IMG/VR virus record: IMGVR_UViG_3300031565_000011
Direction: 5' to 3' (one strand)
Length of the DNA stretch: 64,000 nucleotides
From: an uncultured virus (IMG/VR IMGVR_UViG_3300031565_000011)
Taxonomy: Duplodnaviria; Heunggongvirae; Uroviricota; Caudoviricetes
The stretch's first letter is position 1; each line of letters opens with the position of its first letter. The position numbers were made by a program, and so were the translations under genes. Positions 1,258 through 12,078 of the stretch are shown here, piece after piece. Below the pieces are notes generated by a model. The model did not search any database, was not told the origin of the DNA, and saw nothing but the letters and a program-made list of their open reading frames with translations.

Positions 1258-2112
1258 CTATGTAATCTGTTTTAGTTTCAGAAAAGCGCTAATCAATTGT
1301 AATGATTTAATACAACCCAGACGGAAGCGAGCATCACAGTCAGCCAATATAAGGACAGCCTTTCTCGATTTTAGTTTGAAAGCTTGATCGACTAGTCTAT
1401 TTAGTATCCGTTCATTATCAATCGAATATACCAACGAAGCAAATTCCTCTATGCCGAGGCTGAAGAGATCGTCAAGTGATTCCTCATATCCTTCTACTTC
1501 ACCACCTGCAAATATCTCCAAGGTATTCAATAAACGCCTGGCGTCCCCCCCCGAATCCAAGACCATGACCTTTAACTGAGACTTTTTTATCTTTACCTTT
1601 TCATAGCTCGCCACTCGCTTCGCAAGATTGAAAAGATCCTGATTTGAAATTCGTTTAAATATGAATACCTTACAACGAGACTGAATAGCGCTCGTAATTT
1701 TCTCCTGATAATTACAAGAAAGAATAAACCTACAATTCTTATAATTAACTTCCATAATCCGACGAAGAGCATGTTGAGCATCCTTAGTAATCTCTGATGC
1801 CTCATCTAAAAAAACTATTTTGAATTTGTGAAAACTCTTAGTCCTGGCAAATTCCTGTATTCGTTTCCTTACGACCTCGATTCCCCTATCGCTGGAAGCA
1901 TTGAGTTCAAGAAATGAGTTAATATAGTTATCACCGAAGAGAGCCCGAGTAATGATGTATGCGAGTGATGTCTTTCCAGTTCCAGGATCACCAATAAATA
2001 ATAGATTAGGGATGGAACCCTTTTTTTCTATGTACTTAGATATCTGTTTTATAATATCCTGCTGACCAACCACATCATCAAAAGACTTCGGACGATATTT
2101 CTCAATAAACAT
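1258..2112 (-). CDS. Clamp loader ATPase subunit (RFC small subunit / T4 gp44-like AAA+)
   Basis: RFC boxes present: EKYRP, Walker A GDPGTGKT, LELNASSDRGI, Walker B LDEA, RFILSCNY and the SRC motif. Confidence 0.92.
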   Translation of the reverse strand: MFIEKYRPKSFDDVVGQQDIIKQISKYIEKKGSIPNLLFIGDPGTGKTSLAYIITRALFGDNYINSFLELNASSDRGIEVVRKRIQEFARTKSFHKFKIVFLDEASEITKDAQHALRRIMEVNYKNCRFILSCNYQEKITSAIQSRCKVFIFKRISNQDLFNLAKRVASYEKVKIKKSQLKVMVLDSGGDARRLLNTLEIFAGGEVEGYEESLDDLFSLGIEEFASLVYSIDNERILNRLVDQAFKLKSRKAVLILADCDARFRLGCIKSLQLISAFLKLKQIT

Positions 2113-2303
2113 TACTTCTTCCTTTTCTTCTTTGCCATGAATCGAAATCGCGAATGGTCGCCCCTTTGATTTATTTTTATATCATGAAATGAAAACATAG
2201 TTCGTTTAGCTAACCCCGCTCTAATGGCTCCATCAGTCCATCGTTTTAGGACACTGGTTTTAGAGTCAGCGAACCCAGCATGTCCTGCCAAGAATATTTT
2301 CAT
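2112..2303 (-). CDS. Small basic protein, MKI(F/Y)LA family copy A (putative N-terminal segment of a TGT/DpdA barrel)
   Basis: MKIFLAG...RAGLAKRTMFSFH. It overlaps the neighbouring genes' start/stop codons and is paralogous to 3545-3709 and 3706-3879. Confidence 0.7.
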   Translation of the reverse strand: MKIFLAGHAGFADSKTSVLKRWTDGAIRAGLAKRTMFSFHDIKINQRGDHSRFRFMAKKKRKK

Positions 2304-2995
2304 AGTCCAGTCTCATAGTCCGCGACGAATTCTTCCCATCCTTTTTCACGCTGAATACAGGCCGAACAATTTCCACAGCCATACCCCCAAGTATGTCCTG
2401 TTTTATGGTCACCGTTATAACAAGTATGGGTCTCCTCGATAATTCTTCCGAGTACTCCTAATTCCTGGGCAAGTAAAAAGATTTCAGCCTTGGAAAGAAA
2501 CATCAGTGGTGTTTCAAATCTAATGTCTTTAGCAGAACCAAGATTTGTAATTGTCTGGAGTCCTTTTATAAAATTATCTCGACAGTCGGGGAATCCTTGA
2601 AAGTCAGTTTGGCAAACTCCAATAATGACCGCCTTTGCCTCGACAAATTGAGCGTAGGCATGGGCTATCGTAAGGAAAAGTTGATTCCTATTCGGGACAA
2701 ATACTGAAGATATTCCCTCGTCTTCTTTATTAGAAATTGCTTCGTCGTCGTCATCAGCGACTAAAAGATTGTCCATAATTCCTGCCATGAAAGCCAAATC
2801 AATATATTTTAATCGTATATCATGTGTCTTACAGATCATCCGGGCATACCGTATTTCGATATCGTGTTTTTGCCCGTAGTTAAATCCAAGCGGATAAACT
2901 GGATGAAATCTTTTCATTGCCCAATATAGGCAGGTTGTTGAATCTTGTCCGCCCGAAAATAGGACAACTGCTGGCTCTACTTTATCGTTACTCAT
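2300..2995 (-). CDS. queC: 7-cyano-7-deazaguanine synthase
   Basis: SGGQDS PP-loop, YGQKH, VPNRN, PDCR, and zinc cysteines TCYNG...CGNCSAC. Confidence 0.95.
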   Translation of the reverse strand: MSNDKVEPAVVLFSGGQDSTTCLYWAMKRFHPVYPLGFNYGQKHDIEIRYARMICKTHDIRLKYIDLAFMAGIMDNLLVADDDDEAISNKEDEGISSVFVPNRNQLFLTIAHAYAQFVEAKAVIIGVCQTDFQGFPDCRDNFIKGLQTITNLGSAKDIRFETPLMFLSKAEIFLLAQELGVLGRIIEETHTCYNGDHKTGHTWGYGCGNCSACIQREKGWEEFVADYETGL

Positions 2996-3548
2996 TGTTC
3001 TCTACTCCTACCTTCTTGAACTTATATCTGTATCTTTGAAATGGGCTGTACTCTGGATTTATCAGGGCAAACATTTGCCATAGAATTTTAGGATTAACTA
3101 TCTCCGTATATCGGTCAATCTGTTGTAACCAATAAACATTTTCGTCATCATCAAAAGATATATTACTAATTATCCACTTCAAAAGTACCCGGGCGGATGG
3201 TTTCCATTTTAACAAATGAACATATACCTTATCTCTATCTTCTGAGGTCAAGATTAACTGTAAAGTATGGAATATATTGAAAGTAACATCCCTACTATAG
3301 TAATGGATTTTATCAAAGTATTTTATGAGGTCATTTATTCTATCGCTGTTCGATATCCGACAAATAATATCGTTTCCGCTCTTCTGTAAAATCTTTTTCA
3401 GTTTATCTTTGTTTAACCTTGAACCGTCAAGGTCGATCGTTAGTTTGTTTTCGCAAAGCGAGCCCGAACAAAAACGATTAACTGACAGGGTTTCTATCAG
3501 CGATCCACCCACCGGTGGAGCGGAATAACCTACATACAATACCTTCAT
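2988..3548 (-). CDS. Hypothetical protein (possibly a second, non-ATPase clamp-loader subunit)
   Basis: Coupled 186-aa ORF. The function is inferred only from size and context. Confidence 0.55.
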   Translation of the reverse strand: MKVLYVGYSAPPVGGSLIETLSVNRFCSGSLCENKLTIDLDGSRLNKDKLKKILQKSGNDIICRISNSDRINDLIKYFDKIHYYSRDVTFNIFHTLQLILTSEDRDKVYVHLLKWKPSARVLLKWIISNISFDDDENVYWLQQIDRYTEIVNPKILWQMFALINPEYSPFQRYRYKFKKVGVENNE

Positions 3549-3709
3549 TGTTCTTTCCTAATCTTACGCTGCTGCTTTTTGAAAAATGGACGGAAGTCTT
3601 TCTTGAATCGTTGGTCGTTATGGAAGGACGTCAATATATTTATATATCTCGAACGCTTCATGCATCCGGTTTGATCTTTAGTCGGCCATATAGCAAGGTA
3701 TATCTTCAT
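3545..3709 (-). CDS. Small basic protein, MKI(F/Y)LA family copy B
   Basis: Not in the ORF track (54 aa): MKIYLAIWPTKDQTGCMKRSRYINILTSFHNDQRFKKDFRPFFKKQQRKIRKEQ. ATGA overlaps at both ends. Confidence 0.7.
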   Translation of the reverse strand: MKIYLAIWPTKDQTGCMKRSRYINILTSFHNDQRFKKDFRPFFKKQQRKIRKEQ

Positions 3710-3879
3710 TTCCTTTTCCCCTTTATTGAAACCTTGAACCGTTTCCTTTCCAGCTTTTGGTTTTTCAAAGTGAAGTAACTAAACATTCGATTCATCCCAG
3801 CCCGCGAGATGAATCGTTCTTGCTTCTGTGCGTGTCCCTCAACGCATCCTGGGCTCGACGCTAAAAATATCTTTTTCAT
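3706..3879 (-). CDS. Small basic protein, MKI(F/Y)LA family copy C
   Basis: Not in the ORF track (57 aa): MKKIFLASSPGCVEGHAQKQERFISRAGMNRMFSYFTLKNQKLERKRFKVSIKGKRK. It starts 9 nt after the DpdA-like stop. Confidence 0.7.
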   Translation of the reverse strand: MKKIFLASSPGCVEGHAQKQERFISRAGMNRMFSYFTLKNQKLERKRFKVSIKGKRK

Positions 3880-3888
3880 ATCTTATCT

Positions 3889-4686
3889 CTACGCCAGTTT
3901 TTTATTAGACATGAAAGTACTTTTTTGCCCAGCGAGTTCTTGTTCAAGTTCGCGGAAATAGATTGCACAAACTTCGTCGCGATATTTATATGAACCCTTA
4001 CCTACACCAAGATTCCTGAAACGAAATCGCATTTCATCCCCAAAGTATTGCCCGCCAATTCTTTTCAGATAGTCAATCAACTTGATTCGGTTTTTAGGCG
4101 GCAACCTTTTATAGTAATGATGGACTCCAGGACGTCTGTCAGAAACAGCAATGATGGGTGAGTCAGCATCCAGACCGGCTCCGCCGAATAACCTTCTTGG
4201 TATCAGAATCCCACCATGCCTTGCTACCTGTATCCAGGTTGATGAGTCAACTGAAAACCAAGGAAACATCGTCATTAATCGAATACTAGTACAGCCGAAT
4301 CCATGAACTCGGATATTATCAAGCAATCCCTTTTTTTCAAGATAACTGAAACATTTCATCAACAAAAATATCTTTTCTTTCATCTTCATGGCGCCACTAA
4401 CCATTCCTCCGATCCCGATAAATTCAAACTCATTGCTAATTCTTTGGAACCAATAGTCGCTATAATCTTCCAAGTGGTATACTGGTATAGGATTCAATCC
4501 TTTTTTATTCATATACTTAGTATTCTTATAACTAGCGACCGGATCGCCGATCACATCAAGAGCAGCATAGTAGTCAATGACGTCCTGGTATTTTTTAATA
4601 AACCGGATGTATTCGTCTATCTCGATGACCGCTCCCTGCGAAAAGACTGAATATGCCCCAGAGTCTAAAAATATTGAATACTGCAT
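3889..4686 (-). CDS. dpdA: DpdA-like 7-deazaguanine DNA transglycosylase (TGT fold), starting directly at the LDSGA motif
   Basis: Motifs IFLDSGAYS, LDVIGD, IPVYH, IGIGG, VHGFG and SVDSSTW. It lies within the folE/queCDE cluster. Confidence 0.8.
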   Translation of the reverse strand: MQYSIFLDSGAYSVFSQGAVIEIDEYIRFIKKYQDVIDYYAALDVIGDPVASYKNTKYMNKKGLNPIPVYHLEDYSDYWFQRISNEFEFIGIGGMVSGAMKMKEKIFLLMKCFSYLEKKGLLDNIRVHGFGCTSIRLMTMFPWFSVDSSTWIQVARHGGILIPRRLFGGAGLDADSPIIAVSDRRPGVHHYYKRLPPKNRIKLIDYLKRIGGQYFGDEMRFRFRNLGVGKGSYKYRDEVCAIYFRELEQELAGQKSTFMSNKKLA

Positions 4687-5243
4687 TATAGACCTCCGGT
4701 GAAACAGAGTCGCTGAAATTCTTCTTTAACATGCTGGTCCATGAAGGCCCCACGTAAGGCGGAAGTCTTCATAAGCACTTCCTGTCTTTCAACCCCTCGA
4801 GCAGTCATACAGAAATGTTGAGCTACTATAACTACTCCACACCCTACCGGATTTAAATGTTCCGCCATGGCATTGGCAATCTCTCCAGTAAGTCGCTCTT
4901 GTATTTGTAAACGTCTTGAAAAGCAATCAACCAGTCTAACTAATTTAGAGGCGCCCACTACTTTTTCCTTTGGAATATAGGCGACGTGAGCCTTCCCGAA
5001 AAAGGGAAGCATGTGATGCTCGCAAGTGGAATAAAATTCAATATCGGTCATTAAAATCATCTGGTCATAGTTTCCTGTTTCTGAAAACGTGACGCCCAGG
5101 ATTTTCGCTGGGTCTTGGTTATAACCACCAAATAGTTTATCCCAACTTCTTACTACGCGTTCGGGAGTACTAATTAACCCCTCTCGGTTTGGGTCTTCGC
5201 CTATACGCAAAAGTAATTCCCGAACTATTTGTTGACTGGACAT
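4686..5243 (-). CDS. folE: GTP cyclohydrolase I
   Basis: GEDPNREGL..TP.RV, STCEHHMLPF, RRLQIQERLT and HFCMTARGV. Confidence 0.96.
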   Translation of the reverse strand: MSSQQIVRELLLRIGEDPNREGLISTPERVVRSWDKLFGGYNQDPAKILGVTFSETGNYDQMILMTDIEFYSTCEHHMLPFFGKAHVAYIPKEKVVGASKLVRLVDCFSRRLQIQERLTGEIANAMAEHLNPVGCGVVIVAQHFCMTARGVERQEVLMKTSALRGAFMDQHVKEEFQRLCFTGGL

Positions 5244-5244
5244 A

Positions 5245-5808
5245 TCATCTGACTCCTAACAATTTGTGAAGTTGAACGCTCAGTCGCCAATCACCGATAT
5301 TTTCTTTTACTGCCTTAATTGTCTCCTCAATATTCATCTGCCCGTCTCGTTCAATGGGTTGTAAAAATCTATACTGTACATCGAATGAATTAAAATATTT
5401 TACTAGGTCCTGACCATGATACAAAACCTTAAGTTCATTTCCCTTGAATAGTTTAGTTTCCCCCTTAGGCGAAATGGTTATCCAATGAAAAGGAATTTTC
5501 GTTAAAATTGTTCCATTGGTTTCGATTGCGACCCAATAAAAATGGTCCTGTAAAATATTAACTAAAAGATCTAATTCCTGCAGAAGTGGTTCACCGCCGG
5601 TGAGTATTACCCGTCTTTGTTTCGGATAGCTCTCTTGTAATAGTTTTAAGATTTCATTCTCATTAAAATGCTCATTGGTGGAATGATCCGTGTCGCAAAA
5701 CTCACAAGCCATATTGCAACCAGAAAATCTAATAAAAATAGCTGGCATTCCAGTATGTAGCCCCTCCCCTTGAATTGAAAAGAATATCTCTGTAATTTTA
5801 TAAATCAC
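5245..5808 (-). CDS. queE: 7-carboxy-7-deazaguanine synthase (radical SAM)
   Basis: EIFFSIQGEG, CNMACEFCDT, LTGGEP, IETNGT and RLSVQLHK. Confidence 0.95.
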   Translation of the reverse strand: MIYKITEIFFSIQGEGLHTGMPAIFIRFSGCNMACEFCDTDHSTNEHFNENEILKLLQESYPKQRRVILTGGEPLLQELDLLVNILQDHFYWVAIETNGTILTKIPFHWITISPKGETKLFKGNELKVLYHGQDLVKYFNSFDVQYRFLQPIERDGQMNIEETIKAVKENIGDWRLSVQLHKLLGVR

Positions 5809-6152
5809 TAATCTTCCCTTTCGAATATCGCCACACTCCCGTCATTCTCTTCGACCTCTAGCTTAACGCACTTAGGAATGGCATAGCATAAGAACTCGGC
5901 GATGTTTTCCGCGGTTGTCGGGACTTTATGTCCTACCTCGGCGAAAACATCGTTGATGTTATAGTGATCGAGCCTTTCGCAAAGTCTTTTTATTTCTGCG
6001 AAATCGACCACCATTCCCTGCTCGTCAAGTTCCTTTGACTGGCAGGTAGCAGTTATCCTCCAGTTATGGCCGTGAAGCCTCCTGCACTTCCCTGGGTATT
6101 CTGGAAGATAATGGGCAGAAGAAATCGTAAGCGTTTTCTTTACTGTGAACAT
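5808..6152 (-). CDS. queD: 6-carboxytetrahydropterin synthase
   Basis: SAHYL...KCRRLHGHNW, GMVVDF, LDH and TAENIA. Confidence 0.95.
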   Translation of the reverse strand: MFTVKKTLTISSAHYLPEYPGKCRRLHGHNWRITATCQSKELDEQGMVVDFAEIKRLCERLDHYNINDVFAEVGHKVPTTAENIAEFLCYAIPKCVKLEVEENDGSVAIFERED

Positions 6153-7168: not shown

Positions 7169-7682
7169 TGGTATGCCCCCATTCTGCAGACAAAGACTTC
7201 GCGGCCGTCTCTAGTGCGTCAAGTAATTTATTGATTCTGTGCATAGCGTTCGTGTAGATTTCCCTTCGCTCCATGGCGGCGGATTCAAGGTGGCGTTCTT
7301 TCCTAACCATTGAATCCGCTTTGGTTGATGCCATAGTATCCGTTATCTTATCGCCGCTTTCCGCAGCCTTTCTTTTTATTTCAACAAATATCTTTGAACG
7401 CTTCCCCTTTCTATTTCCCTCTGTTCTTAAAAAATCACCTTGAGCCTTTCCAGAATGAACTGCTAAGAATACGTTGAGGGCAGCGAGCTGTACGTGATCC
7501 CTATTAAGTTCGCTTCGTTTATACTTCGATACCATGTCAGCGATTCCAAGCCCGGTATATCTATTTACGATTTTCAGAATACCATGGAGGAATTCGTACT
7601 CGTCAGGCGAGTTCTGGAAAATGCTCCAGTCCACCTTAGTATTCGGCTTCTCGATTAGGCGAGACTTTTTCTTGTCCGACAT
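7161..7682 (-). CDS. Helical protein, possibly a UvsY-like recombination mediator
   Basis: Predominantly helical with a K.TD...... segment reminiscent of UvsY-like proteins. It lies in the same operon as recA. Confidence 0.4.
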   Translation of the reverse strand: MSDKKKSRLIEKPNTKVDWSIFQNSPDEYEFLHGILKIVNRYTGLGIADMVSKYKRSELNRDHVQLAALNVFLAVHSGKAQGDFLRTEGNRKGKRSKIFVEIKRKAAESGDKITDTMASTKADSMVRKERHLESAAMERREIYTNAMHRINKLLDALETAAKSLSAEWGHTNG

Positions 7683-8689
7683 TTCTCGTTCTCCACAAGG
7701 GAATCAATCTTCTTAGTAATGTCAATAATCTTATCCTTGCCCCCTTGACATAGGACTCGATTATTACCCATACTCCGCCCACTAACAAAAATAATACTAT
7801 AAGGTTTCAAAGTCGAAGCGTACCGCTTATCCGCTTCGGCATCTAAGAATATGGTGATACCGCCACGATGATCCTGGACCTTTAGGACCTTCGTTGACTT
7901 GCCTGACATTGGAGTATCTATTTCTATAATAACCCCAGCGACTCCAGCCCGCTCCCACCTATTAAAGTCGGCCAACTGAACTGATGTAATACAATACTGT
8001 TTCATTAAAAAATCTCTTACCTTATCCTCGAAAAAAGGATGTAGTAAAATAAACCCGAAAGCCTCGACTGCATCCTCTACGAAACTCTGCTCAAGATCAA
8101 AAACCTGTTCCTTACGCTGACTATTAAATAACCGTTTTATAGAGTGTCTATCTCCCAGCGCATCGAAGGCCCCTGACTGAATAAGCGATACTATTTTTCC
8201 CTTATGAATCTTTCCACTTATCCGGTCAAGGAAATCGGTAAAAGAAGAGAATGGTCGCTTGGATAGGATCTCCTCGGCGCTTGGCCCTTTTATTCCCTTT
8301 ATTTTGGAGAGCCCGAAACGAATTGCGTGACCTTTGTTTTCCAAGGTGAAGCCGGAGCCTGACTTATTGATGTCGGGAGGAATGACCCGTAACTGATATC
8401 GTCTTGCTTCATTAATATAGTTATATATCTTGTTGAGTTCAGACCCACGTTTCTTATCCTTCTTCACTCCAGTAGCAGTATTAGAAAGTAAACTGGCAAA
8501 GAACTGTCCAGGATAATAGTTCTTGAGATATAGAACCTGGAAAAATAAGAAAGCGTAACTGACAGCGTGGCTATTTGATACACAAATATCATTGGCGTAA
8601 TAATTATGGAAACCACTATCTATTTCTAAATCTAAAGTCTCTTCTTCTCCAATATATGATATATCTACAATTTCTTCAAACTTGTTCAT
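7655..8689 (-). CDS. dnaE: DNA polymerase III alpha C-terminal half, preceded by a 39-aa C-intein
   Basis: IntC (MNKFEEI...HNYYANDICVSN), then SHAVSYA..Q..YLK.YYP..F.ASLL, PPDINKS, IRFGLSKIKG HhH, and a C-terminal OB-like region. Confidence 0.93.
   Translation of the reverse strand: MNKFEEIVDISYIGEEETLDLEIDSGFHNYYANDICVSNSHAVSYAFLFFQVLYLKNYYPGQFFASLLSNTATGVKKDKKRGSELNKIYNYINEARRYQLRVIPPDINKSGSGFTLENKGHAIRFGLSKIKGIKGPSAEEILSKRPFSSFTDFLDRISGKIHKGKIVSLIQSGAFDALGDRHSIKRLFNSQRKEQVFDLEQSFVEDAVEAFGFILLHPFFEDKVRDFLMKQYCITSVQLADFNRWERAGVAGVIIEIDTPMSGKSTKVLKVQDHRGGITIFLDAEADKRYASTLKPYSIIFVSGRSMGNNRVLCQGGKDKIIDITKKIDSLVENEKCRTRKSLA
8573..8689 (-). mobile_element. Split intein C-fragment (IntC)
   Basis: Block F/G pattern ETLDLEIDSGFHNYYANDICVSN with terminal Asn; the +1 residue is Ser (codon 8570-8572). 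Confidence 0.9.
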
Positions 8690-9602
8690 CTGTACCTCCG
8701 TATTTTTTTAACAACAAATCCTTAAACTTCTTTTCATATTTATATGCATCTTGATAAGTCTTTTTATGACACCTTAAACATAAGGTTATGCCATTATCCA
8801 AATCATGCCTATGATTTGGATACTTTGCCTTAGGTTTAATATGATGGGCCTCTACATATTTTTTTTTGCCACAAACAAGACATGTATATAAATCTCTGAA
8901 TAAAATTTGGTCTCTCCATCTTATATCATCCCAAACTATTCTTTTTCTATCTTTTATTCTTTTTAAGTCTCCATCGCCACCTTTAGATATGCTGATTTTT
9001 ATTTTTGTTTTATCAGAATGCTTACATCCTGTATGCCCATCAAAATTTCTTTCCTTAGCGCTTTTAGAAAGGTTCTTTTTATGCTCTTCTGTAAGTCTTT
9101 TGCCCTTCTTTTTATCACTTACCTTTTTTACAGAACTATTAGTTTCCTTGGTTAGTCCCTTATTCCAAGGATCTTTATTATACATAGGATTGTTTTTACC
9201 TAATCTATTACTTGCCATTGTTTTTATTATATTGTTATTATGTTTATTTTTACCTTTATTCCAAACATATGATTTACCAAACTTTCCAAATCTAATATAC
9301 CCACAACAACTATAAGTTAAATATTCACCCGTTATTAAGCATCTTGGAACATCATAGTATTCATCTAAAACTTCAAGTATATTTTTACCATACTTTTCTT
9401 GATAGTAGACGTCTGCAATTTCTGAAATATAAAATACTTTTTTTATAGGACGTTGCATTTTAAGGCGTTTTTTATATCTTTCTGTAGGTATCTTTTTCCA
9501 TGTATAATAATCTTTCTCAAAATTGGCATATAAAACTATAGTTTTCTTTCCAGAATATAGTACCTCATGGATTCCATATTTATCTAATTTTAATTTTTTC
9601 AT
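8676..9602 (-). mobile_element. Free-standing HNH homing endonuclease with NUMOD3 repeats, between the dnaE halves
   Basis: C-terminal CLVC...EAHHIKP...NGITLCLRCH. NUMOD3-like motifs WNKG, GKNNPMY, LTEEHKKNLS and HSDKTKIKIS. Visibly AT-rich and overlapping both dnaE halves. Confidence 0.9.
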
Positions 9603-12078
9603 GCTTTTCTATTGCTACTCCTAGTGACATCATACCATTTTCAGTTAAAACTTCATGGTCTAAGCTTGCTTCTAAAGTTTTCCCTGATTTAGTTTTAATC
9701 CTATAGACCTTTCTTTTACCATTTTTATGCAAACCTTTCACGCGATTAAACTCGTCTTCTTTTGTTGTTTGATTATAGCATAAAACTTTCTCATCATTTC
9801 GTACATCCATTATTTTAATTTTTCCCCTTTTTTCTGTTCTAATATAATGATTTTCTGTAATACATTTATTAAACGAATATTTAGTAAATTCTTTGATAGT
9901 CTTCCAAAGTTGCGAAGCTGATTCGTGATCCATAACTTTATGACTTCGTCTAAAAAATTCATTTTGAAACTTTATTCGTAAACCTTTATCAGTATCAAAT
10001 ATCTTTTTAGCTGCCATTTTTCTAATATTTTCTGCTTCAACCATTGAATAATTAGCAACTTTATTTAATATCTGTATTACCTGTTCTTGGTAAACCAATA
10101 CTCCTCTAGTTTCTTCAAGTATCTCGTTAATATCATCGTTGTCAATCCCCATTCCTTCCTGTGTTATAAACCTTTGAACTGCGCCACTACCAAGCGGACC
10201 TGGACGATTGATAGCATTAAGCGCGGCTATTTCCTGAAAGTTCTTTGGTCCGACCTTTTTTAATAATGAAATAGCAGAATCAGTCTCAAACTGAAACATC
10301 CCGACCGTATGTCCCAGTCGTGCTTCCTTCATTAGTTTTTTATCAGCAAGGTCGATAGTCCATATCTTCTTAGCAAGGCTTTTACCTGTCGTTTCCTTTA
10401 CTAAATCCAAGGTGTCCGAAATAATCGAGCAGGTATTTAATCCCAGTATATCTAATTTAAGCAGCCCTACTTCGCTCAATTCCCTACCCCTTAGTCCCTC
10501 CGAATAGGCCGAGACCACTTGGCCCTTGACTCTTTGAAGTGGACAATATTTGTAAACTGCCTTTGGAGCTATTATCGTTCCGCATGGATGCACTCCGATA
10601 TTCCTGATAAGACCGGATATTTTCTTTGCCAGGTTTATAAGGCTCCGATGTTCCTTCCAGAAATCTTTAAGTCGCCCCGACAAGTTTTTATATGCATCAT
10701 CTATTCCGCCGCTCTTGTATATTTCATCTGCCAACTCATTTATCGGACGAGCGGCCAGTTTGAAAACCCGGCCAATATCACGAATCGCCCCTACTGATCC
10801 GAATGTCCCAAATGTAATAACTCGAGCGACCTTATCATCGCCATATCTTTGTCGAATATAATTAAACACTCGCTCCCTTTTATTTGCATCGAAGTCAAGA
10901 TCAATGTCCGGCATATCACATCTGCTCTCATTTAAAAAACGTTCAAAGATCAGTCCATGCTCTATCGGATCAACCTTGGTAATCCCGAGGACTAATGAAA
11001 CCAGGGAACCAGCAACAGAGCCCCTGGCTGGACCAACAAATATATTATTCTTCTTACACCAGCTAACCAAGTCATCAACAATTAGAAAATAGTCATGGAA
11101 TTTTAGACGTTCTATTACATCGAGTTCACGTTTTAACCGGTTAGCATATTTCTTCTTTTTCATAAAGCCGAGAACCTTGGCCTTGTAAATAACTTCCGAT
11201 GAAAACTCGAAAGGCTCAAGTCCCATGTCCGGTATGTGAAATTTCCCGGTAGGTATTACCAGTGAACATTTTTCTGCTGCTTCCTCGGCGTTACGAATTA
11301 CCTTCCTAAAAGTCTTTTTATCAAGCGCAGTCTTCCAGTCCTTACTTTGTCGCCATATATCCTGGGCAGTCATAAGAGAAAGACTTCGAGCAGTATACCT
11401 TACTTTATCGACCTGGTCAATTGTCAAACGATCACGGACTGCCAGTATAAAATCCTGGATGTAAACGTCGTCTGGACTTACATAGTGCGAGTCGAGGGTA
11501 AGAATAACCTTGACGCCATGCTTTTTTGCCAACTTCAATAACCATCGGTTTACATTGGCTTGTATATCTATTTCGTTAAGTTGAATCTCAACATAAAAAT
11601 CATCCTCAAACCGATCCTTCCAACGCATTATTTCCCTTGCTGCTTCTTCTTCTCTGCCGAATAGTTTTCCAAGTATTCCCCCCATGCAAGCAGTTGAAAC
11701 AATCAATCCGTCACCGTTTTCAAAAACCATCTTAGTAGTAGTCCTTGGTCGATAATAAAAACCATCGACGTGAGCCTCTGAAACAATCTTAAGTAGATTT
11801 CTATATCCATGAATATTTTTTGCTAATAAAACAATATGCCTATACTCTCCCTTTCTTTCAGGCGAATCATCCAAGTACATTTCGGTCCCGACTATCGGGT
11901 TCACTCCCTGTTTTTTACACTCTAAATAAAATTCCAATGTTCCCGATAAAGTTCCGTGATCCGTAATAGCCAATGAAGACATGTCCAACGTCTTAGCCCT
12001 GGTGATCAACGCTTCTATATCAGCGCAGCCATCCAAAACACTGTGGGTTGTATGCTGATGCAGGTTCGTGAAAGTCAT
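9580..12078 (-). CDS. dnaE: DNA polymerase III alpha N-terminal half (PHP + catalytic core), ending in a 94-aa N-intein
   Basis: LHQHT.HS.LDG, ITDHG, GPARGS, PDIDLD, KLDILGL, GMFQFE, GVLVYQEQ, then YSFNK followed by the intein C1. Confidence 0.96.
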   Translation of the reverse strand: MTFTNLHQHTTHSVLDGCADIEALITRAKTLDMSSLAITDHGTLSGTLEFYLECKKQGVNPIVGTEMYLDDSPERKGEYRHIVLLAKNIHGYRNLLKIVSEAHVDGFYYRPRTTTKMVFENGDGLIVSTACMGGILGKLFGREEEAAREIMRWKDRFEDDFYVEIQLNEIDIQANVNRWLLKLAKKHGVKVILTLDSHYVSPDDVYIQDFILAVRDRLTIDQVDKVRYTARSLSLMTAQDIWRQSKDWKTALDKKTFRKVIRNAEEAAEKCSLVIPTGKFHIPDMGLEPFEFSSEVIYKAKVLGFMKKKKYANRLKRELDVIERLKFHDYFLIVDDLVSWCKKNNIFVGPARGSVAGSLVSLVLGITKVDPIEHGLIFERFLNESRCDMPDIDLDFDANKRERVFNYIRQRYGDDKVARVITFGTFGSVGAIRDIGRVFKLAARPINELADEIYKSGGIDDAYKNLSGRLKDFWKEHRSLINLAKKISGLIRNIGVHPCGTIIAPKAVYKYCPLQRVKGQVVSAYSEGLRGRELSEVGLLKLDILGLNTCSIISDTLDLVKETTGKSLAKKIWTIDLADKKLMKEARLGHTVGMFQFETDSAISLLKKVGPKNFQEIAALNAINRPGPLGSGAVQRFITQEGMGIDNDDINEILEETRGVLVYQEQVIQILNKVANYSMVEAENIRKMAAKKIFDTDKGLRIKFQNEFFRRSHKVMDHESASQLWKTIKEFTKYSFNKCITENHYIRTEKRGKIKIMDVRNDEKVLCYNQTTKEDEFNRVKGLHKNGKRKVYRIKTKSGKTLEASLDHEVLTENGMMSLGVAIEKHEKIKIR
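9583..9864 (-). mobile_element. Split intein N-fragment (IntN)
   Basis: Starts CITENH (block A) and contains G.RKVYRIKTKSGKTLEASLDH (block B), followed by a stop codon. Confidence 0.9.

Follow-up and report, generated by a model that had tools for sequence, protein, structure and literature searches.

DpdA enzymes determine which guanines of a phage genome become 7-deazaguanines, and hence the restriction enzymes and Cas nucleases that a phage evades; we know of no account of what determines the target motif of a DpdA. Here we examine the dpdA locus of an uncultured member of the Caudoviricetes (IMG/VR record IMGVR_UViG_3300031565_000011), of which a stretch of 64,000 nucleotides was analysed (hereafter, the window). 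This locus encodes a DpdA-like protein that begins almost directly at its catalytic motif, along with three small open reading frames (ORFs), A, B, and C, whose products resemble the first quarter of the barrel found in one-chain relatives. An earlier sequence-only reading had reported these four ORFs, and inspection of the minus strand found each of them where it had been placed. We assign a probability of roughly 0.6 to the explanation that the 'headless' core is completed by A, B, and C, which would serve as modules giving several isoforms of an enzyme that inserts preQ0 into phage DNA.

The closest described enzymes are the one-chain DpdA1 proteins (phrog_887) of the 9g/Seurat/CAjan-group Escherichia phages and of Pseudomonas phage iggy. 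These proteins exhibit the same core motifs as the window protein (FLDSG, VHGFG, and PW[YF]SxDS), share 34-36% identity with it over the core, and are encoded alongside the same FolE, QueD, QueE, and QueC neighbours, while their first ~60 residues are homologous to A, B, and C. The difference lies in the arrangement of the pieces: barrel strands 1 and 2 belong to the same chain in the one-chain enzymes, whereas in the window the core is without this N-terminal module (N-module), and three modules have genes of their own, which lie downstream and depart from the ancestral order. No extra modules were found nearby in the two one-chain cases examined, the 9g-like phage GottfriedDienst and Microcystis phage Me-ZS1, both of which carry 60 residues ahead of FLDSG. 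One-chain phage DpdAs modify a fraction of the guanines only: that of phage iggy is reported to act on a GA motif, with about 16.5% of G modified (PMC10484667), and that of CAjan on two motifs (PMC7544227).

A more distant relative is the bacterial DpdA of the S. Montevideo Dpd restriction-modification system, a TGT-like TIM barrel that swaps DNA guanine for preQ0 and exhibits an equivalent placement of the Asp general acid/base and the Asp nucleophile (PDB 7ui4; PMC10164549). The same source describes an insertion between beta1 and alpha1 that helps to form a positively charged DNA-binding surface, and another between beta2 and alpha2 that flanks the active site. In contrast to the arrangement in the window, the bacterial enzyme is a single chain of 413 residues that needs the DpdB ATPase and has a large insertion, Ins8, with a zinc site of the form CXCX2CX22H. 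The window core has three scattered cysteines, none of which falls in a CXCX2CX22H arrangement, so that it is without the zinc-site feature of bacterial DpdA and TGTs, and no DpdB-like gene was seen beside it.

The core protein (start: MQYSIFLDSGAYS) begins five residues ahead of the catalytic FLDSG motif. Its match to phrog_887, annotated as queuine tRNA-ribosyltransferase, is strong (E 3e-41) but starts only at profile column 57 of 509, and its match to phrog_7068 (E 4.2e-20) starts at column 29. A tblastn search returned 234 records from phages, some of the 9g/Seurat type with a DpdA annotation, and the matches listed all begin at core residue 2-5. Among 120 database homologues, FLDSG lies at position 40-80 in 87, while a sizeable group begins directly at the motif; the relatives P0004-P0006 are 60-72% identical to the window core. 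Pfam yielded no TGT match to the core at E<=1, nor any family for the mini-ORFs, and a phmmer search of PDB sequences with the core brought up no TGT, its best match being to an unrelated protein (E 0.12).

Structural modelling placed the core more firmly. An AlphaFold2 (AF2) model of the core alone has a predicted local distance difference test score (pLDDT) of 83.5 and six barrel strands. A Foldseek search with this model placed bacterial TGT, ArcTGT, and bacterial DpdA at the top (E 3e-4 to 1e-3, probability 0.99-1.00), the last of these at rank 4 with E 1e-3, and VIA-align gave Z-scores of 12.8-13.7 and root-mean-square deviations of 3.1-3.7 A over 213-226 aligned residues, as for a TGT-type TIM-barrel fold. 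The core thus belongs to the phage DpdA1 sequence family and to the TGT fold. Residue 1 of the model falls on residue 95 of Z. mobilis TGT, residue 88 or 98 of QTRT1, and residue 88 of ArcTGT; as modelled, the core has no counterpart of TGT strands 1 and 2 and is not a complete single-chain (beta/alpha)8 barrel. This agrees with the sequence-only reading, which had proposed that the large ORF does not form a full barrel by itself.

The catalytic residues are all found within this truncated chain. D8 (in FLDSG), D44, H128, and D147 (in PWFSVDS) are invariant in an alignment of 24 headless relatives. By analogy with the residue assignments in PMC10164549, we read D8 as the putative general acid/base and D147 as the putative nucleophile, the counterparts of Asp95 and Asp256 in bacterial DpdA, while D44, the likely counterpart of Asp130, and H128 are read as base-reading residues.

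The core and the mini-genes lie within a gene cluster whose members are as follows, listed in order of transcription.

5808-6152, minus strand: QueD (6-carboxytetrahydropterin synthase), the first gene of the operon (Pfam PTPS, E 3.1e-27; phrog_2389, QueD-like)
5245-5808, minus strand: QueE (radical SAM, 7-carboxy-7-deazaguanine synthase; Pfam Radical_SAM, E 3.4e-11; phrog_2076, QueE-like, E 3.3e-36)
4686-5243, minus strand: FolE (GTP cyclohydrolase I; Pfam GTP_cyclohydroI, E 4.1e-69)
3889-4686, minus strand: the headless DpdA catalytic core, 265 residues, predicted barrel strands 3-8 (phrog_887 match and structure model)
3706-3879, minus strand: N-module mini-gene C, 57 residues; MKKIFLAS, a 27-residue connector, strand 2 ending SYF, and a basic tail
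3545-3709, minus strand: N-module mini-gene B, 54 residues; MKIYLAI, a 22-residue connector, strand 2 NILTSFH, and a basic tail
2988-3548, minus strand: an ORF of 186 residues (ORF186) with no family match
2300-2995, minus strand: QueC (7-cyano-7-deazaguanine synthase), the last step to preQ0 (Pfam QueC, E 7e-71)
2112-2303, minus strand: N-module mini-gene A, 63 residues; MKIFLAG, a 32-residue connector, strand 2 TMFSFH, and a basic tail
1258-2112: an RFC-like clamp loader, the next gene after A

From QueD to A these genes form one packed minus-strand operon (2112-6152), and, as is typical for phage DpdA1, the four genes FolE, QueD, QueE, and QueC are all found together with the core. Base 4686 is common to the FolE stop and the dpdA start, so there is no coding room upstream of dpdA for an N-terminal module; a GGAGG sequence lies 8-12 nucleotides upstream of the dpdA ATG. 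All three mini-genes are instead found 10-1780 nucleotides downstream of dpdA and on its strand. C begins after a gap of 9 nucleotides from the dpdA stop, and 4-nucleotide ATGA overlaps occur at the C/B, B/ORF186, and QueC/A junctions, which bears out the junctions described in the sequence-only reading. Base 2112 is likewise common to the end of A and the start of the clamp-loader gene. With the exception of the dpdA-C gap, the overlaps of 1 to 8 nucleotides that run from FolE through the clamp loader suggest co-translation. The remainder of the window carries replication genes and those for a virion with a contractile tail, among them sheath, baseplate, tape measure, and portal.

The products of A, B, and C share a common plan of a hydrophobic strand 1, a variable segment, a strand 2 ending in S-F/Y (RMFSYF in C), and a tail that contains 10 K/R against 1-3 D/E in each protein. 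The connector between the strand-1 Ala and the strand-2 Ser differs in length among them (22 residues in B, 32 in A, and 27 in C). To relate this plan to DpdA, an N-module profile was made from only the parts preceding FLDSG in the 87 one-chain DpdA homologues. Searched against the 1113 stop-to-stop ORFs of at least 30 residues in the window, this profile ranked A, B, and C first to third (E 1.6e-5 with 20.7 bits, 2.2e-4, and 0.098, respectively), ahead of a fourth ORF at 0.82, and the likeness of the three ORFs therefore goes beyond chance. Once the profile had been iterated twice with modules from related loci, the E-values were 3.5e-8 for B, 1e-7 for A, and 5.4e-5 for C, while the next window ORF stood at 0.98. 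A profile-to-profile comparison, one of the checks proposed with the sequence-only reading, gave the same answer: hhalign matched a 61-member module alignment to a 50-member alignment of one-chain DpdAs with a probability of 95.3% (E 2.3e-8) and placed module columns 2-37 on DpdA columns 1-47. This fits the pattern that the sequence-only reading had given for single-chain enzymes, K(I/L)Y(L/F)A...LLSY before FLDSGA, which is visible in one-chain DpdAs inspected here. Across the 61 modules, M1, I3, A6, L26, and S28 are nearly invariant. We are close to certain that all three mini-ORFs are genuine genes and share ancestry with the N-module.

A complex prediction for the core (24-row alignment) with B (61-row alignment) scored 0.83 (runs of 0.74, 0.89, and 0.83) against 0.01, 0.00, and 0.00 for the controls. 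In calibration, 116 of 157 solved complexes attained such a mark, as did 2 of 215 mismatched pairs, counts that are only rough with custom alignments. The three runs had at least 39% of contacts in common, with a partner pLDDT of 40, 83, and 66, and the contacts with the least error joined B residues 2-4 to core residues 144-147 in the PWFSVDS strand and B residues 23-27 to core residues 4-7 in the IFLD strand. This predicted strand pairing is that expected if B supplies barrel strands 1 and 2 and so closes the barrel. The model accordingly lends some support to a completed barrel for B, the one mini-protein that it covers, and we think it likely that the core is complemented in trans by at least one of the three mini-proteins. 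As a separate observation, a contig from a soil run (X5) differs from the window at two positions in 2.8 kb (3685 and 4589), both non-synonymous by codon reading; they correspond to P9S in B, just past strand 1, and to Y33C in the core, a residue that the complex model places in contact with B residue 43. A pair of changes is not enough to establish covariation.

Next, we surveyed the gene neighbourhoods of related cores. A scan of IMG/VR with the headless-core alignment gave 80 loci, a figure that includes duplicates (e.g. L043/46/47/67, L076/80, and L082/84). Among 16,550 ORFs from both strands of these loci, the iterated profile made 185 module matches at E<=1e-3, and all 185 lie on the dpdA strand. 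Stand-alone module ORFs, amounting to 99 distinct mini-proteins, are found in 68 of the 80 loci, most of them directly after or directly before dpdA, so that the predicted co-occurrence of truncated DpdA with such peptides is borne out well beyond the window. Searched against 1.84 billion cluster representatives, the module profile returned 759 at E<=1e-3 and 46 at E<=1e-10, and 145 of the best 150 matches are proteins of 41-117 residues.

These data bear on whether the small ORFs might be unexpressed, decaying relics of rearranged dpdA 5' ends. Upstream of the 80 cores, fewer than 40 open codons are present in 31 loci and a profile-confirmed cis module in 12, while the other 37 have a longer open stretch with no significant match; by eye, some of these 37 hold divergent cis modules, others hold modules whose strand 1 is lost or that have slipped out of frame, and others again hold unrelated sequence. 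In L016, L019, L033, L037, L048, and L054, for example, the upstream frame retains strand 2 and the next helix of a module, with strand 1 absent or in another frame, which suggests that such remnants are cis modules severed by a frameshift or stop. Decay of this kind evidently could occur, but each of A, B, and C has a start codon and runs to full length, with coupling to the stop of a neighbouring gene in the case of A and B. For 19 inter-locus pairs of modules at 50-95% protein identity, the ratio of non-synonymous to synonymous substitution rates (dN/dS) was 0.15-0.37 (median 0.28); choosing pairs by protein identity biases this ratio downward, and the least diverged pairs (dS 0.17-0.44) gave 0.29-0.36. 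Judged from these comparisons, the mini-gene family is under purifying selection, which, together with a database spread made up almost wholly of stand-alone proteins among its best matches, makes the relic explanation highly improbable.

A different alternative accepts the modules as genes but grants only one of them a part in the enzyme: a single mini-protein would be the true missing quarter, and the others would be redundant duplicates, or regulators that compete for the slot and set the amount or timing of enzyme while targeting stays unchanged. Just one module is present in 18 of the 68 module-bearing loci, the core+B model and the P0248 model described below offer a single slot only, and of the three mini-proteins C matches the ancestral N-terminus least well. 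Against it, two or more modules, and as many as five, are retained in 50 of the 80 loci, and paralogues with clearly different connectors recur, with dN/dS below 0.5 in 19 of 19 pairs, unlike what drifting duplicates would give. Within the window itself, all three mini-genes are intact. The window sequence is nearly unchanged in several soil metagenome runs: contigs of four soil DNA runs are near-identical to it and have no indels in A, B, or C, and the sole return of a metagenome scan was a 99.96% copy of the window (L086). The closest record (G001/L004/L005) stops inside dpdA, and the mini-gene region lies outside its coverage. On balance we regard a single true partner as unlikely, though it is the strongest of the alternatives weighed here.

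The relationship between modules and cores in other phages is more varied than a gene cut in two. The other five of the best 150 database matches are longer proteins, of which P0144, P0195, P0248, and P0267 are DpdAs with 2-3 tandem modules before FLDSG, while P0145 (207 residues) holds two modules and no catalytic core. By our inspection, three tandem cis modules precede FLDSG in P0018, P0195, and P0248, and two in P0144, P0267, P0098, and P0117; P0124, P0125, and P0130 are mini-proteins that hold two modules. In an AF2 model of P0248, the N-module segment runs as strand, helix, strand, and helix into the FLDSG strand, and of its three cis modules the one adjacent to the core is placed confidently in the barrel (pLDDT 86-95) while the other two score 44-67. 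Internal starts, or exchange between protomers, are possibilities for the use of such surplus modules. Spare modules therefore go with headless, broken-headed, and complete enzymes alike, and because they occur both beside complete DpdAs and as tandem cis copies, 'spare heads' is a better description than a simple split. The sequence-only reading, in which the first barrel strands are encoded in trans, thus stands as far as the structural tests go, but not as a plain division of one gene into two.

We propose the following mechanism for the window. The core would contribute barrel strands 3-8 and all catalytic residues and would be unable to close the barrel alone, while each of A, B, and C would represent the missing first quarter, consisting of strand 1, helix/loop 1, strand 2, and the basic tail. 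A module would slot in with its strand 1 against the last core strand (PWFSVDS) and its strand 2 against the first (IFLDSG). As there would be a single slot, occupied by one module at a time, up to three isoforms of one enzyme could form, differing mainly in the connector between strand 1 and helix 1 and in the tail that follows strand 2. [quoted passage not shown] No tailoring enzyme beyond these four was found in the operon, so preQ0 is most likely the inserted base, by analogy with the systems described by Hutinet et al. (PMC6884629).

The equivalents of the connector and tail lie on the DNA-binding face in bacterial DpdA, and one-chain DpdAs are motif-specific; from this we infer that the isoforms would have different DNA-binding faces. 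They could then differ in DNA binding or in target motif, so that more guanines, or a shifted set of them, would be protected. That the three mini-proteins are functional alternatives that change DNA targeting is a tentative proposal, one that we rate as less likely than not. The same caution applies to the broader idea that a core and a modest set of N-modules (three in the window, and as many as five elsewhere) would amount to several DNA transglycosylases with different DNA-binding faces. Overall, the split is well supported by computation, while interchangeability and specificity switching are plausible possibilities.

Several points weigh against this reading. Core and B are two pieces of a fold for which many solved structures exist (TGT and DpdA), and the docking result may stem from likeness to solved TGTs rather than from binding of these chains; the partner's own pLDDT was 40 in one of the three runs. 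The model shows that the pieces fit the fold rather than that they bind in the cell, and it covers B only, with A and C placed by homology and by conserved strand residues. The match of C to the uniterated profile is weak, at the E-value of 0.098 given above. A, B, and C have no blastp match (E<=1e-3) among 106 modules of other loci, and a word-indexed search with A found no near-length homologue besides A itself; the evidence of conservation therefore concerns the family and does not extend to these three genes. Groups of modules with like connectors recur across loci, a description only, and the three window mini-proteins were assigned to recurrent module types by means of patterns written after the sequences had been seen, which is no test; in single-linkage blastp clustering, 90 of 109 modules fell into one cluster while A, B, and C were singletons. 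Finally, in 12 of the 80 loci, by profile, mini-genes lie next to a DpdA that already carries a cis module. The presence of a cis module means that the mini-genes of those phages are not needed for barrel completion, which leaves another role possible.

Such a role might be a job of their own, as small basic DNA-binding proteins or as poisons of the folding of host TGT/DpdA, with the core acting alone or as a homo-oligomer whose barrel is closed by strand exchange; the mini-proteins would descend from the N-terminus of DpdA but would have ceased to be parts of its barrel. The 12 loci with a profile-confirmed cis module fit this explanation, as do the strongly basic tails of the mini-proteins, and a complex model of two halves of a known fold can pass through likeness to solved structures. 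Set against this, the conserved positions of the family (M1, I3, A6, L26, and S28) sit in the strands expected to pair with the core, and the least-error contacts fall on those same strands. The modules also keep to the dpdA strand in every one of the 185 matches and mostly abut dpdA, and a six-stranded open barrel would leave both of its edge strands unsatisfied. We therefore consider a separate function improbable, less so than decay but more so than a single true partner, and continue to favour completion of the core by its modules.

A cultured phage offers a parallel. The best GenBank phage match of the core is Edwardsiella phage vB_EpM_ZHS (OM621816), with 36% identity over 92% of the length, and its annotated DpdA likewise begins just ahead of FLDSG. 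Downstream of it, the profile identifies a 60-residue ORF as an N-module (E 3.2e-6) and gives a second one a weaker score (E 0.77); the annotation of the genes of this phage goes no further than hypothetical protein. We also observed that the annotated dpdA start of this phage, at 2986 (L001, 2872-3786), may be too far downstream, as starting at an in-frame ATG immediately behind the FolE stop would lengthen the protein by ~43 residues beginning MILWPGG. By eye this extension might be a degenerate N-module, and the N-module profile did not detect one within it.

Among TGT-fold enzymes, the eukaryotic TGT heterodimer QTRT1/QTRT2 also needs a second, non-catalytic chain, and the core model has each of the two subunits among its top structural matches. 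QTRT2 is, however, a complete paralogous barrel that lies alongside its one partner, whereas here a quarter-barrel would be inserted and a set of partners is encoded. Type I restriction-modification systems, with their HsdS variants, provide an example of enzymes with exchangeable specificity subunits; HsdS is a separately folded DNA-reading subunit outside the catalytic fold, and the likeness is one of analogy only. TIM barrels have been assembled from separately made pieces by fragment complementation in the laboratory, and the split TIM barrels known to us are all engineered, none of them a natural system with multiple variants. In the literature on DpdA, phage 7-deazaguanine, and split TIM barrels we found neither a split DpdA nor N-module mini-genes described, though supplementary tables might list such genes without comment, and we found no published family name for the mini-proteins. 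Word searches within PMC10516641, PMC6884629, and PMC10484667 likewise brought up no account of a split enzyme.

If the proposed arrangement is correct, a constant core combined with a varied, DNA-side piece of about 55 residues would give a direct handle on the determinants of the target motif. Guanines could be hypermodified in several contexts, and new contexts could be acquired by duplicating a 60-codon gene while leaving the core untouched. It would also represent a rare natural TIM-barrel enzyme made from separately translated pieces, which bears on ideas of a quarter- or half-unit origin of this fold. For annotation, hundreds of 'hypothetical' phage proteins of 50-80 residues (the 759 clusters) and 'truncated' TGT-like genes would be read together as one enzyme.

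The operon contains one further gene, ORF186, which is located among the module genes and is coupled in translation to both B and QueC; it is a candidate member of the system only. It has no Pfam or PHROG match. We rejected it as a fourth module, as it has no match to the N-module profile, and as a homing endonuclease, as its weak LAGLIDADG match (E 0.066) misses the threshold. In the Atlas its relatives are viral hypotheticals only, with a weak, sub-threshold likeness to a P-loop/AAA-type fold, and the Atlas model is poor (pLDDT 0.43). A homologue, P0275, is 62% identical to ORF186; its longest contig is 10,716 bp, as is that of the DpdA relative P0005, and the two may be linked.

Elsewhere in the window, a PolIII-alpha-like DNA polymerase (phrog_405) is encoded in two minus-strand ORFs within 7655-12078, with the ORF at 9580-12078 corresponding to profile columns 42-793 and that at 7655-8689 to columns 793-1087. 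An HNH endonuclease gene (8676-9602) is located between both polymerase ORFs and overlaps each. The polymerase is a second split enzyme in the replication module, with a homing endonuclease as the likely cause. Near the beginning of the window, an ORF of 266 residues on the minus strand (159-959) encodes a lengthy acidic stretch of D/E and, after it, a tail rich in K, and the strand opposite is also open, an artefact of the low-complexity repeat.

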